Assembly (NCBI GenBank): GCA_004295045.1
Contig: SHND01000030.1
Coordinates: forward strand, 110,223 to 150,222
Direction of reading: 5' to 3'
DNA: 40,000 nucleotides
From: Chloroflexota bacterium
GTDB lineage: Bacteria > Chloroflexota > Anaerolineae > UBA4142 > SHND01
The position numbers and the translations under genes were made by a program. Of the stretch, positions 4,018 through 15,095 are shown one piece after another (within the stretch, counting starts at the first letter, position 1; each line of letters starts with the position of its first letter). The notes under the pieces were generated by a model. That model saw nothing but the letters and a program-made list of their open reading frames with translations, was not told the DNA's origin and did not search any database.

Positions 4018-4110
4018 GCCCAACAATGGAATATGCGGCATCGCTGCCGCATATTCCACCTCACATTCGTTTCATACTGCATCCTGCCGCATGATTCTTT
4101 TCAGGCGGCA
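4018..4110. repeat. attI-like junction module C (no adjacent integrase)
   Basis: Starts with GCCCAAC (RYYYAAC). AATGGAATATGCGGCA aligns with the attI-proximal sequence at 14979-14994. Perfect 13-bp hairpin at 4028-4057. A TGCCGCATGATTC 13-mer is shared with 8487-8499. Confidence 0.45.
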
Positions 4111-4135
4111 AAAAATTATCGCCGTCCAATTTTTT

Positions 4136-5518
4136 CTAAATCACTTCGCCATTCACCACCGTAATCGGTTCACCCATCTCGTACTGTGGACTCGTTTCCG
4201 TGCCGATGCCGAACGGCTGCCATTTGTGTTCGTCGGCGTTGAGGCGATGTTTGCCGCCGCCGCGTTTGTGCGTTTGCTCAAAACCTTCCGGCTCGATGAA
4301 AAGATGCTCGCCTTCGAGCAAACCGAACACGCCGCTTTGCCCGGGTTCGGCGCGTTTTTCTTGACAGAACTTGCACGTTTTGGGGTCGTGCGGATGATAA
4401 TCGAGCGGTTCTTCGTACGTAGTGATAAAGCCTTCAAAGTTTCGCAAGACAACTTTGTGGTCGCTCGCGCTGATTTGATATTGCGGCATCACGGGAATTT
4501 TTCCGCCGCCGCCGGGCGCATCCACAACGTAGGTTGGAATCGAATACCCTGACGTGTGTCCGCGCAGCGCCTCCATGATTTCGATGCCTTTGGCAACCGG
4601 CGTGCGGAAATGTCCCGCGCCATGAACTAAATCGCATTGATAGAGATAGTACGGGCGCACGCGTATTCTCACGAGGTCGTGTACGAGTTGCCGCTGCACA
4701 TGCGGACAATCATTCACGCCCGCGAGCAGCACCGACTGATTGCCCAACGGAATCCCCGCGCGCGTCAAACGGTCGCACGCCTCCGCGAGTTCCTTTGTAA
4801 TTTCGTTCGAGTGATTGACGTGAATGTTGAGCCACAACGGATGAAATTTGCCGAGCATGTCACACAATTCTTGTGTCACGCGCATCGGCATAAAGACGGG
4901 CACGCGCGAACCGATGCGAATGATTTCAATGTGTGGAATCGCGCGCAACCGCGTCAAGATTTCTTCCAACAGTTTCGGCGCAAGCACCAACGGGTCGCCG
5001 CCCGAAAGCAAAACGTCGCGCACTTGCGGCGTGCGTTGCAGATATTCAATCTGCGCGTCAAAGTCTTTGCGCGAAAACGTCGCGGTCGGATCGCCGACGA
5101 TGCGCGAACGTGTGCAGTAGCGGCAGTACGTGGCGCATTGCGTTGTGACGAGCATCAACACGCGGTCGGGATAGCGATGCACGAGACCCGGCACGGGTGA
5201 GTGCGCGTCCTCCGCGAGCGAATCTTCCATCATTGCCGTAAAGGGTGCGAGTTCGTGCGCGGTGGGGACGACTTGTTGGCGAATCGGGTCGTGTGGGTCG
5301 TTCGGGTCAATCAGCGAGGCAAAGTACGGGGTAATGTCCACGCGAAAGAGATGTTTTGCGCGCAGCGCTTCTTTTTCGCTTTCGTTCAAATCGAGAACGT
5401 TGGCAAGTTCGCCGACGGTGTTGAGCCGGTGGGAAAGTTGCCAGCGCCAATCGTTCCATTTTTCATTCGGAACGTCCTGATAAAATTTCGCCCGCTTGGA
5501 CGGAAATTCGTGTTTCAT
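4136..5518 (-). CDS. kamA: Lysine 2,3-aminomutase (KamA-family radical SAM)
   Basis: 460 aa with radical-SAM CATYCRYCTRSR motif and KamA-like context (LLSGGDPL, YLYQCD, GGGGK). Confidence 0.9.
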   Translation of the reverse strand: MKHEFPSKRAKFYQDVPNEKWNDWRWQLSHRLNTVGELANVLDLNESEKEALRAKHLFRVDITPYFASLIDPNDPHDPIRQQVVPTAHELAPFTAMMEDSLAEDAHSPVPGLVHRYPDRVLMLVTTQCATYCRYCTRSRIVGDPTATFSRKDFDAQIEYLQRTPQVRDVLLSGGDPLVLAPKLLEEILTRLRAIPHIEIIRIGSRVPVFMPMRVTQELCDMLGKFHPLWLNIHVNHSNEITKELAEACDRLTRAGIPLGNQSVLLAGVNDCPHVQRQLVHDLVRIRVRPYYLYQCDLVHGAGHFRTPVAKGIEIMEALRGHTSGYSIPTYVVDAPGGGGKIPVMPQYQISASDHKVVLRNFEGFITTYEEPLDYHPHDPKTCKFCQEKRAEPGQSGVFGLLEGEHLFIEPEGFEQTHKRGGGKHRLNADEHKWQPFGIGTETSPQYEMGEPITVVNGEVI

Positions 5519-5660
5519 TTTTTATCCTCCTTGGATAAATAATTTCAGATCAGTTCATTTCAGGTGACAAGGAGGTGGCGCGGTGGGTCGTGGTCTGTGC
5601 GGAAAAAACCTGCACCGCGGAAAAAGCCGAACGGAAAATCATTTCGAAGCATCACGCGCG

Positions 5661-5689
5661 AGTATAGCACAAATGAAAATGCGCGTAAA
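5661..5689 (-). promoter_or_regulatory. Putative kamA promoter (TTTACG-17-TGcTATACT, extended -10)
   Basis: On the minus strand the -10 TATACT is the rc of 5661-5666, TG is at 5668-5669, and the -35 is the rc of 5684-5689. Leaves a ~140-nt leader. Confidence 0.45.
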
Positions 5690-5713
5690 TCATTTGCAAA
5701 ATAATTTACGCGC
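5671..5713 (-). terminator. Terminator after the 159-aa membrane protein gene
   Basis: 10-bp stem GCGCGTAAAT (5681-5690) / ATTTACGCGC (5704-5713) with a 13-nt loop, followed on the minus strand by ATTTTCATTT. Confidence 0.5.
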
Positions 5714-5729
5714 AGGAGATACCTCGACG

Positions 5730-6209
5730 TTAGAACGGTTTGAAGACCATCAAATATAACAAGAGTAGCAAACCGATGCCGCCGATGACTGCAAGTTCGA
5801 TTGGGCGCGATGACTTGAGCAGCGCCGCAATCTCTGTCGCGCTCTTGGGCGCAGGCGTTGGCGACTTGCCATATACGGACGCGCCCACCGCCTCACGTAC
5901 TTGGGCATAATAGGGAGAACCACGTATGTACATCAACACAATAACGAGTGCGAGCAACCCCAGTGATGCCCAAAACCAGCCGCGTGACCACCAACTGCCG
6001 ACGACTCCACCGCCGATGCCTGTAAGCAAAATGACCAATAACGCCGGATACATCAAACCCAGCGTACTCTGCGAAAGGTTGAGCAGGGTCTTGATGCTTT
6101 CAATATTTGTTTCATTACGCAGGCGTAGTCCGACAAAGGCAGAAACGCCATGTGCGATAAAAAAAGTGAACGCGGCAATGATGTGAAGATAAATAATCCA
6201 ATAATACAT
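5730..6209 (-). CDS. Integral membrane protein (DUF2269-like), function unknown
   Basis: Start moved to ATG 6209 (MYYWIIYLHIIAAF), with SD AAGAGGAA 7 nt upstream. Four predicted TM helices. Confidence 0.7.
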   Translation of the reverse strand: MYYWIIYLHIIAAFTFFIAHGVSAFVGLRLRNETNIESIKTLLNLSQSTLGLMYPALLVILLTGIGGGVVGSWWSRGWFWASLGLLALVIVLMYIRGSPYYAQVREAVGASVYGKSPTPAPKSATEIAALLKSSRPIELAVIGGIGLLLLLYLMVFKPF

Positions 6210-6377
6210 TTCGAGATTCCTCTTTGTCACAAAACTTGTAGACCACTCAAAGAGTCCGTAGCATTGGATTCATGCGTTCCGTTTGTTGTTGGCGGTGGCG
6301 ATGATCTGAAAGTTGTGTGCAAAAATTTCGCAAATGCGTAACGGATGAATCATGGCGCGGTCGGTTCTCCGCAAGAC

Positions 6378-13847: not shown

Positions 13848-13876
13848 AAGGGTATCTCCTGTTCGTTTCTACAATA

Positions 13877-13905
13877 AAGATACACCTTTTTGCTGGATTT
13901 TTCAA
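13877..13905 (-). promoter_or_regulatory. Putative cassette-internal mazEF promoter (TTGAAA-17-TATCTT)
   Basis: -35 is the rc of 13900-13905 and -10 the rc of 13877-13882, with a 17-nt spacer. SD AGGAG lies upstream of the mazE ATG. Confidence 0.45.
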
Positions 13906-13924
13906 GCGCTTATTTCGTGGGGGG

Positions 13925-14053
13925 GGCTAACGGTTTGCGTTACCTGCGTGTGGGCGGGCGTGGACAATGCTTGGGAGCGGGAAAAACTCGAAGCGAGAAA
14001 AATGCTTGAAAATGCCGCAGAATCCCACACGTCAGGTGCACGCTTTGTTAGCC
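13925..14053 (-). other. attC site of cassette 1
   Basis: GGCTAAC (13925-13931) and GTTAGCC (14047-14053) are exact complements. ACCTGCGTGTGGG pairs with CCCACACGTCAGGT leaving one unpaired T. 129 bp in total. Confidence 0.75.
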
Positions 14054-14063
14054 CGTTTCTTGC

Positions 14064-14939
14064 CTATTTTATATTTGCATTGATAATGGCTTCCATTGCC
14101 GTTTCGAGAGTCTTACCTGCAAAGTCTCTGATTTCGCTTAAAACGGTATTACCTGCTTTTTGAAAAATTTCTTCTTTTCTCTTTAACTCTAACGATTTTA
14201 TAGGATTTTCCTTTTCCTTAACTGCTCTTTTGATAATCGTGAATATTACTCGAAGTTTTTCTGCGATTCCTTCAGCAGAAAAACCTTTGAAGGTAACTAC
14301 AATATGTTCTGACGAGCGCACATCATTGAAAATAACCAAACAAGGAAATTTGGAAAATTCGATATTGAATATATTTGCAATATTGATACTGTAGCCTTTT
14401 GTAACATGTCCTTCAACTGTTGATATCCAAGATTTATCTTCGAAATTTGGGCGTTTAATTCCGCTGTCGCCAAATGTAAGAACCAAACAATCGTCTCCAG
14501 AAATCAAATCAAGTTCTCTTCCATACTCTTTGAGGTAACGAAGCGATTCTCTGTCAGACGGAAGAACAAGGAGAATAGCATAAGTTGAATATTTACCGTG
14601 ATTTCGCAAGATATTATGCCACCACTCTCTCATCAGTTGAATGTTCTTCACGTCGGAAGGAGGGTATGTGTCAACAACAAAAGCAGATTCAAAACTTTCG
14701 AATTCTCTATTGAGTTTCTCTGCAAGATATTCTAGTTCTTCCAGCATACCTTGCATTTTAGAATGCCACTGCTCATATTCTTCTGGAAATTGACTTCTTT
14801 GGGGTATCCCGTATTCGGCGAATGTAGTAAAGATTTTTGAACGAAGAGAATGAATTTCATCCTGAATAAGATTATGGGTCGCCTTCATTTGTGAAAGTAA
14901 AGACCTGCCAGCGTCTTCAACACTGAGTAAAATTGGCAT
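14064..14939 (-). CDS. Orphan integron-cassette protein, 291 aa, function unknown
   Basis: Intact ORF with SD GGAG 8 nt upstream. Very AT-rich (sampled lines about 25-35% G+C). Helical N-terminal third, then a mixed alpha/beta region (YAILLVLPSD...DCLVLTFGD...CLVIFND). No family recognised. Confidence 0.7.
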   Translation of the reverse strand: MPILLSVEDAGRSLLSQMKATHNLIQDEIHSLRSKIFTTFAEYGIPQRSQFPEEYEQWHSKMQGMLEELEYLAEKLNREFESFESAFVVDTYPPSDVKNIQLMREWWHNILRNHGKYSTYAILLVLPSDRESLRYLKEYGRELDLISGDDCLVLTFGDSGIKRPNFEDKSWISTVEGHVTKGYSINIANIFNIEFSKFPCLVIFNDVRSSEHIVVTFKGFSAEGIAEKLRVIFTIIKRAVKEKENPIKSLELKRKEEIFQKAGNTVLSEIRDFAGKTLETAMEAIINANIK

Positions 14940-14971
14940 ATTTTCTTCTCCGACATGTTTCTTGATGAACG

Positions 14972-15095
14972 GGCTAACTATGGATTATACCGCAACCTTG
15001 ATGTATAGTCCTCTATATAGGCGGATTATACGGCATCGTGCCGCATAATTCCTTATATGCGGCAAGTATATCCGCGCTTGCGCTACTGTCAAGCA
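14972..15095. other. attI site and divergent promoter region of the integron (module B)
   Basis: GGCTAAC at 14972-14978 is the rc of the GTTAGCC crossover core facing cassette 1. Two direct GTATAATCC repeats on the minus strand (TATAAT at rc 14984-14989 and rc 15025-15030). Alternating TATGCGGCA/TGCCGCATA 9-mers. Lies 35 nt upstream of intI. Confidence 0.65.

Follow-up and report, generated by a model that had tools for sequence, protein, structure and literature searches.

Can one integron integrase serve several recombination sites that lie kilobases apart among ordinary chromosomal genes? The textbook integron has a single attI, beside its integrase gene intI, and the question is raised by a 40,000-nucleotide (nt) stretch of a Chloroflexota genome (assembly GCA_004295045.1, contig SHND01000030.1, positions 110,223-150,222 of the forward strand), here called the window. 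The window holds a chromosomal integron of the sedentary kind, from an Anaerolineae-type Chloroflexota bacterium, with one intI and three attI-type sites, one of which (module B) is the resident site and two of which (modules A and C) are diverged paralogues. The three-site feature is real and well supported, and the orphan sites suggest that several docking sites can share one distant integrase; we think it probable, if well short of certain, that the single IntI acts on them in trans. The window is the part of this genome that was compared, and all copy counts hold for that stretch. Loci of relatives are labelled L001 and so on, among them L112 (GCA_022072245.1), L115 (GCA_009612915.1) and L052 (Microcystis aeruginosa W13-11). 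The central features are as follows.

15130-16089, plus strand: intI, the integron integrase gene, full length and the sole intI in the window
16101-17648: murE, starting 11 nt after intI
14972-15095: module B, the resident attI, with core GGCTAAC at 14972-14978 (GTTAGCC on the cassette strand) and repeated GGATTATACSGCA-type sites at 14983-15065
15065-15092, minus strand: putative cassette promoter (Pc) of B, TTGACA-16-TATACT, facing the cassettes (promoter scan, 11/12)
8421-8543: module A, orphan attI-type site, with core GTCTAAC at 8421-8427
8513-8540, minus strand: Pc-like promoter of A, TTGACA-16-TATACT (promoter scan, 11/12)
4018-4135: module C, orphan attI-type site, with core GCCCAAC at 4018-4024, a perfect first inverted repeat at 4028-4057 and a second at 4085-4110

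The intI product scores 460 bits against TIGR02249 (cutoff 265) over model positions 1-313 of 315, and its alignment to VchIntIA (2a3v) is full length, HxxR and catalytic tyrosine region included; it is a tyrosine recombinase of the integron type and has the extra domain specific to IntI. The identical sequence in NCBI is a protein of a Chloroflexota metagenome-assembled genome; 'Chloroflexi bacterium UTCFX4' has a relative at 96%. Every gene from 692 to 14939 lies on the minus strand. At least five independent assemblies from separate sequencing runs (L001, L011, L097, L099 and L101) show the same layout, which is therefore not a mis-assembly.

Modules A, B and C are paralogues of about 110-125 nt with no counterpart elsewhere in the 40 kb. 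An earlier note on this DNA, made from the sequence alone, had described their three cores, a 16-mer (WATKGAWTATRCSGYA) directly after each core, a 37-nt block shared by A and B (8482-8518 vs 15034-15070, 2 mismatches), the further string CTGTCAAGCA common to these two, a perfect 13-bp palindrome in C (4028-4040 / 4045-4057) and a perfect TATAAT on the minus strand of A and B, and all of these hold. A 19-mer derived from WATKGAWTATRCSGYA matches the window only at the three modules, with at most three mismatches, where shuffled sequences lead one to expect none, and motif and profile searches of the other 25 kb found no further module copy. The 37-nt block is part of a likeness between A and B that spans 77 nt at 81%, and the palindrome of C folds with z = -6.0. 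The TATAAT lies 8 nt from the core; the TTGACA-16-TATACT promoter, farther upstream on the same strand, is stronger, and its hexamers are kept in B, A and L015 while the spacer between them varies. A promoter scan of module C found no sigma-70-like promoter.

The mutual likeness of the three modules stops exactly at the core. Identity to B is about 75% for A and about 58% for C; A stands at about 75% from the attIs of three species alike, that is, equally distant from each, and C at about 58%, so that both are old. The first inverted repeat is perfect in C and the distal arm of the same repeat has decayed in A and B. On the intI side the boundaries differ, A stopping at the -35 hexamer and C taking in an A-run; an attG junction was considered for these ends of A and C, which do not match the G|WT consensus. 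Folded as single strands, all three modules leave the core unpaired and form local hairpins only, not the whole-length hairpin of an attC, and the attC covariance model matches none of them. An Rfam scan of 1-16200 returned spurious weak matches only; no known RNA therefore explains the modules.

Compared with 96 loci, the module profile finds matches almost only 100-230 nt upstream of intI. About 15-20 relatives in Chloroflexota and cyanobacteria, whose IntI is 58-70% identical, have the same plan upstream of intI: RYYYAAC-TAT and, after 2-7 nt, a first inverted repeat made of TTATACRG-type half-sites, then about 13 nt and a second inverted repeat. The inner bases of the half-sites co-vary between lineages (TATACAGC, TATACGGA, TTAGACGG). 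The module layout is therefore the attI type of this integrase clade and not a repetitive extragenic palindrome (REP) or miniature inverted-repeat transposable element (MITE), and the repeats between core and intI are predicted to bind the integrase. A pattern search of the genome collection (…NNNNGCGGCAA) gave no match, the pattern being too strict for relatives that carry ACGGCAA; a metagenome pattern scan gave one true relative (L106) and three chance matches inside ParE-like coding sequence.

Module B, 35 nt from the intI start codon, is the true attI, as the earlier note had proposed. This is confirmed by five related genomes (loci L007-10, L015/16 and L106), which are 84-92% identical through intI and whose similarity to the window begins at 14967-14976, at or just outside the core. 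In the L011 strain another cassette abuts the same B core. The array behind B reads as follows.

13099-14974, minus strand: array B, two canonical cassettes
14064-14939: cassette 1, a WXG100-like open reading frame (ORF) of 291 amino acids (aa), with attC at 13925-14053
13605-13847 and 13259-13600: cassette 2, mazE and mazF (Pfam), with attC at 13099-13229
13044-13098, minus strand: end of array B, an intrinsic terminator at 13075-13098 (terminator scan) followed by GGCTGCGGTATAATC at 13044-13062

Both attC sites are about 130 nt long; the family covariance model gives them 151 bits (13925-14053) and 102 bits (13099-13229), and the first, an imperfect hairpin of the RYYYAAC...GTTRRRY type, pairs end to end in the fold. 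A sister haplotype (L011-L014, 97% identical) is without cassette 1, the gap running precisely between the cores at 13931 and 14974, and has an additional RibD_C cassette at about 13105. The resident attI itself differs at 9 of 125 positions between the window (14972-15095) and L011 (9844-9966), where the flanks are about 97% identical, and the differences include a reshaped fourth repeat (ATAATCCGCC-TATACGG). At the far end of the array, GGCTGCGGTATAATC is a -10-like near copy of the crossover-proximal attI motif (GGTTGCGGTATAATC in B) and lies 9 nt before the likely start codon of a 111-aa ORF; in L112 (1150-1230), too, attC end, terminator and ..GCGATATAATC follow one another in this order. 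This segment may be what is left of an older attI, or just a promoter.

Modules A and C lie 6.6 and 11 kb from intI, directly downstream of a CocE hydrolase gene and of kamA, respectively. Each of the three modules marks the end of conserved sequence and the start of small co-oriented cassette genes. Of the two orphans C has the stronger evidence, and its surroundings are these.

4136-5518, minus strand: kamA, lysine 2,3-aminomutase (TIGR03820, 555 bits)
3448-4017, minus strand: first cassette behind C, with an AHSA1/SRPBCC-like ORF at 3448-3900 (Pfam)
3954-3982, minus strand: own promoter of this cassette, TCGACA-17-TATAAT (11/12)

Module C directly follows the kamA stop codon, with about 25 nt between, and a C-type module stands right after the kamA stop in L112 (5313-5448) and L115 (6348-6470) as well (nhmmer E = 1e-17 and 2e-22). 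In both relatives homology to the window ends at the C core and different cassettes follow. In L112 these encode DUF1361, NUDIX, Rce1-like and DUF2442 proteins, a methylase and further genes, with five covariance-model matches to the attC family that flanks array B of the window. In L115 a MazEF cassette, 85% identical in nucleotides to that of the window, begins right at the C core, and the 5' end of this one cassette is thus found after a canonical attC (window), at the resident attI B (L011) and at module C (L115). No intI is present in the 3.9-4.9 kb available upstream of C in L112 and L115, and in the window the nearest one is 11 kb away. The kamA|C junction is shared by three species and the first cassettes differ; recombination at C must therefore have gone on once it stood beside kamA, and a distant IntI acting in trans is the simplest reading.

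The 68-nt leader of the AHSA1-like cassette (3957-4024) is 78% identical to 7627-7694 in front of an unrelated RibD_C cassette, where the copy starts at the core closing a probable attC (7688-7694). Both leaders hold a sigma-70-like promoter and a palindrome, ATAGAAC-N4-TTTCTAT / AGAACAGATTTTCTGTT, that resembles a LexA-type box, GAAC-N4-GTTC. At 7.7 kb into the array behind C, L112 has a truncated attI-type site at 13090-13147 (GGATTAGACTGCAAGAATGCAGCATAATCAATAGTTGGCA, inverted repeat 1 plus core); standing at the attC position after a 150-aa gene, it is a candidate for a chromosomal-integron cassette of the ΔattI type.

The genes on the opposite side of the orphan modules belong to the chromosome, and the genes behind module A are set into it.

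8644-13041, minus strand: conserved chromosomal island
8644-10662, minus strand: CocE/NonD hydrolase of the island (Pfam/NCBIfam)
10670-~12500, minus strand: Cthe_2159 beta-helix protein of the island (Pfam/NCBIfam)
12707-13041 or 13081, minus strand: ORF of 111 or 124 aa of the island
8563-8643: tandem repeat of the heptamer TCCAATC, 11.6 copies at 91% matches (Tandem Repeats Finder), lying exactly between A and the CocE stop
5691-8427, minus strand: block A, cassette-like genes within the CocE-kamA spacer (Pfam)
7773-8384, minus strand: RibD_C gene of block A
7688-7748: probable attC of block A (covariance model E = 0.11, correct strand)
6813-7430, possibly from 7604, minus strand: second RibD_C gene of block A
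~6379-6558, minus strand: 59-aa ORF of block A
6336-6419: possible attC of block A (hairpin scan)
5730-6230, minus strand: DUF2269 protein gene of block A
5617-5695, minus strand: conserved kamA promoter region, a spacer kept in L109, L110, L112 and L115

In L108, murE and CocE are separated by 312 nt with no intI. In L109 and L110, CocE and kamA are separated by about 180 nt, and this spacer matches 5658-5690 of the window, just upstream of kamA; the L109 kamA product is 94% identical in amino acids to that of the window. L110 continues through two genes into the nuo operon (nuoN), with which the left side of the window also ends, and L112 has a 113-aa ORF and Cthe_2159 upstream of kamA. A further relative of CocE (L111, 77% identical) is uninformative. 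Since murE-CocE and CocE-kamA are adjacent in relatives without integron sequence at these junctions, CocE and kamA are chromosomal backbone, and block A (~5691-8567) and module C with its following genes are consequently insertions in the spacers of murE-CocE-kamA-nuoN.

The conserved/variable boundary at the core of A is drawn where similarity to its paralogues ends, and strains L001, L011 and L097 carry module A with 100% identity. A mechanical attC hairpin scan cleanly recovered only 13925-14053 and 6336-6419, and the family covariance model found no further family-type attC over 1-8700. With so few attC matches, cassette status is uncertain for most of block A and for everything left of 3448. 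The block A RibD_C genes and the extra RibD_C cassette of L011 share 23-28% amino-acid identity only and no common attC. A 10-bp hairpin at 5681-5713 (GCGCGTAAAT/ATTTACGCGC) was considered as an attC x attG junction and dropped, because L113 has the same hairpin upstream of kamA; it is therefore treated as part of the kamA spacer.

Several observations touch this spacer. The heptamer units read (G/A)TTGGAG on the cassette strand and resemble a run of degenerate GTTRRRY cores; at the same position the integron-free L109 has only ...TGGGATGAGGTTGATT.... L108 (12059-12196) and L109 (2262-2300) encode an identical CocE protein and diverge after ...GGTTGATTACGCA, L109 passing into the kamA promoter and L108 into CCTGTCAAGCCATATATAAAAGCTACCCAAC..., where its contig ends 138 nt past the CocE stop. 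The L108 sequence has the look of a separate insertion, made where block A sits in the CocE-kamA spacer of the window. In L113 (1-170) and L115 (1-4800), cassettes of the same attC family lie directly upstream of kamA, the position of block A, and both contigs break within the array.

How might such an arrangement work? Under the explanation we favour, the single IntI would act in trans on A, B and C and, at the G|TT within each core, insert or delete cassettes that bear an attC. Modules A and B would supply a strong outward Pc to their first cassettes, and cassettes at C, where the module has no promoter, would rely on read-through from kamA or on promoters of their own. The orphan sites may have arisen when an attI-bearing circle integrated at secondary sites, or when once-adjacent intI genes were deleted. 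We infer four things here: binding of the inverted repeats by IntI, recombination at C with no intI beside it, like behaviour of A and C, and activity of the promoters. The earlier note had offered a segmented integron with several attI sites served in trans as one of three readings, and it is the best supported of the three: the cross-species comparison supports it strongly for C, and analogy alone supports it for A.

A number of points weigh against this explanation. Module A has been seen in this species only, and the attC signals of block A are weak and amount to 7688-7748 and 6336-6419 alone. Behind C in the window no attC was found between 540 and 3460, and only the first gene looks cassette-like. 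The contigs of L112 and L115 are short, and an intI may lie farther away. No cassette polymorphism among strains was seen at A or C, the window and L011 haplotypes being collinear over 4947-12520 and L099-L103 identical around C; recent activity is therefore shown for B only. C is absent from L110 and from L113, although the L113 kamA is as near to that of the window as is the L112 kamA (87%), and the history of C accordingly needs losses or transfers. Finally, a host regulator, rather than IntI, could bind the repeats.

Other explanations account for parts of the evidence. Modules A and C could be relics of two more integrons that lost their own intI and are now inert fossils beside cassettes acquired earlier. 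Loss of intI is a common explanation of clusters of attC lacking integrases (CALINs) (10.1101/2022.09.11.507474; PMC4889954), and both the age of A and C, paralogues 75% and 58% identical to B, and the want of recent polymorphism at either site agree with it. Yet the window, L112 and L115 have the kamA-stop|C junction in common, and the loss of intI would have to predate their split; different first cassettes have nonetheless been joined exactly at the C core, one of them the MazEF cassette that also occurs at attI B. Nor is there any remnant of intI in the roughly 25 nt between C and the kamA stop or the roughly 100 nt, mostly heptamer repeat, between A and the CocE stop, and we regard such relics as unlikely. 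Somewhat less likely still is a mobile mini-element, an ORF-less attI circle that moves, seeds arrays at attG-like sites and re-starts transcription. It would fit the attI-derived sites inside the arrays of L112 (13090-13147), L052 and L036, the strong promoter of A and the different insertion in L108 that starts at the same point of the CocE-kamA spacer. What it does not fit are the unlike intI-side boundaries of A and C, junctions that depart from the G|WT attG rule, a module C without promoter, and a search that saw no identical copy pairs, circular forms or copies outside integron regions. The earlier note had likewise suggested an attI-derived mobile promoter element; this is supported in part only, a strong promoter being present in A and B and none in C, and the mobility is conjectural.

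That note had also raised attI x attI recombination products bounding mega-cassettes of 4.4 and 6.6 kb, and a related proposal would make CocE (with Cthe_2159 and the 124-aa ORF) and kamA mobile ΔattI-type mega-cassettes whose 3' site derives from attI rather than attC. A and C do stand exactly at the attC position, just downstream of the CocE and kamA stops, the 5' end of the island abuts the R' end of a canonical attC, and ΔattI-type cassettes exist and recombine (PMC12901181). Both versions founder on L108, L109 and L110, where murE-CocE and CocE-kamA occupy the same locus and no att site or other integron sequence interrupts either pair; moreover, the kamA promoter spacer is kept on the far side of block A, and kamA occurs without module C in L110 and L113. 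CocE with A and kamA with C are then not mobile cassettes with an attI-derived 3' site, and we hold mega-cassettes to be very improbable. The chance that the modules are a dispersed repeat (REP/MITE) or the operator of a host regulator unrelated to the integrase appears close to negligible. Palindromic 9-13-mers resemble operator sites, and the examined part of the genome is 40 kb. Against this, the 25 kb outside the integron have no copies, the profile matches in 96 loci fall almost only just upstream of intI, the motif co-varies with IntI lineage across phyla, and pattern scans of the whole collection gave no dispersed copies. A REP or MITE would be expected in many scattered copies, and the window has three, all in the integron region; the high-copy, genome-wide element that the earlier note had named as fatal to its idea does not appear in the available sequence.

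Closest among known systems come ΔattI-type cassettes, CALINs and complex integrons that have two attI sites. Partridge et al. are said to have described, in 2009, unusual gene cassettes of the ΔattI type in mobile integrons of classes 1 and 2. In these cassettes attI fragments, rarely whole sites, occupy the attC position and recombine (Gonzales Machuca et al. 2026, PMC12901181); IntI1 recombined ΔattI sites in assays, and rare ones keep a complete attI1 or 244 nt of attI2 (PMC12901181). As in the window, attI-derived sequence is found in an array away from intI with a normal GTTRRRY crossover. Most ΔattI fragments, however, are 14-18 nt long and replace the attC of a mobile resistance cassette, whereas here full sites of about 110-125 nt follow conserved non-cassette genes, and they are diverged paralogues, one of them conserved across species, in a sedentary chromosomal integron of Chloroflexota. 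In104, a complex class 1 integron, arose recently when conserved segments of a mobile integron were partly duplicated, with resistance genes between them. Located in Salmonella genomic island 1, it has two attI sites (PMC7056807), each with its own cassette, in one element, as here. Its attI1 copies are essentially identical, whereas those of the window are old paralogues interleaved with housekeeping genes.

Cyanobacterial integrons L052 and L036 (61-62% IntI identity) carry additional copies of the attI region in the same orientation inside their arrays. Three L052 spans are of this kind (5694-5840, 7645-7791 and 9800-10000), two of them extra copies; one copy opens TCCCAAC-TATATAATATACGGAAAC and belongs to an ORF-less unit (5694-6144) behind a sequence that by eye reads as a canonical attC (6144-6230), and another comes after a 583-aa gene. 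L036 has a truncated copy of about 75 nt at 3552-3628. The ΔattI definition may fit the L112 site at 13090-13147 and the ORF-less unit of L052, and the attI-derived sites in the arrays of L112, L052 and L036 hint at mobility or a recurrent process.

IntegronFinder defines a CALIN as at least two attC with no intI within 4 kb. Such clusters are presumed to be mobilised in trans and described as not transcribed from a Pc (PMC4889954; Loot et al., 10.1101/2022.09.11.507474). The window resembles them in having cassette runs kilobases from intI; the program might call blocks A and C of the window CALINs, on their weak attC candidates, and would so call the L112 and L115 arrays, and L112, with five attC matches and no intI in the 3.9 kb upstream of C, falls under the definition. 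CALINs by definition have no known attI, whereas the intI-less arrays here are headed by an attI-type site, in block A also with a Pc-like promoter. Like attI1 with its IntI1 sites L, R, DR1 and DR2, the modules are double-stranded sites of about 60-120 bp with GTTRRRY at one edge and, to judge from their sequence, several repeated protein-binding-type motifs on the intI side. They differ in having two inverted-repeat pairs of TTATACRG-type half-sites, where attI1 has two direct repeats of another motif sequence.

To our knowledge, annotation tools cannot detect attI outside classes 1-3. The attI site is unidentified for most integrons (PMC4889954), and a full-text literature search found no natural multi-attI sedentary integron within the literature it covered. 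The clade-wide signature, RYYYAAC-TAT with two inverted repeats, makes attI computationally searchable in many environmental integrons. The present locus adds attI-type sites kilobases from intI at the boundary between conserved sequence and variable array, here and at the same position in two related species, with arrays at orphan sites that share one cassette pool with the resident attI. Should a single integrase serve them in trans, captured genes would have several 'first positions', arrays would be interleaved with housekeeping genes, and some CALINs would be satellite platforms rather than debris. Orphan attI sites serving one integrase in trans may even be a general, overlooked part of sedentary chromosomal integrons in this IntI clade of Chloroflexota and cyanobacteria, an extension that we find possible but doubtful. 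If true, attI-bearing units, sometimes with their own Pc, would be installed at new chromosomal positions or inside arrays and act there as additional points of docking and expression, which would explain the founding, feeding and expression of at least some CALINs.

Within the conserved island, a segment of about 81 nt (12521-12601) sits between the 124-aa ORF and the Cthe_2159 gene and is absent from the L011 strain and L112. Its only Rfam match is a spurious miRNA. It contains a 23-nt inverted repeat (12531-12553 / 12567-12589, 96% complementary) and looks like a small hairpin (MITE-like) insertion.

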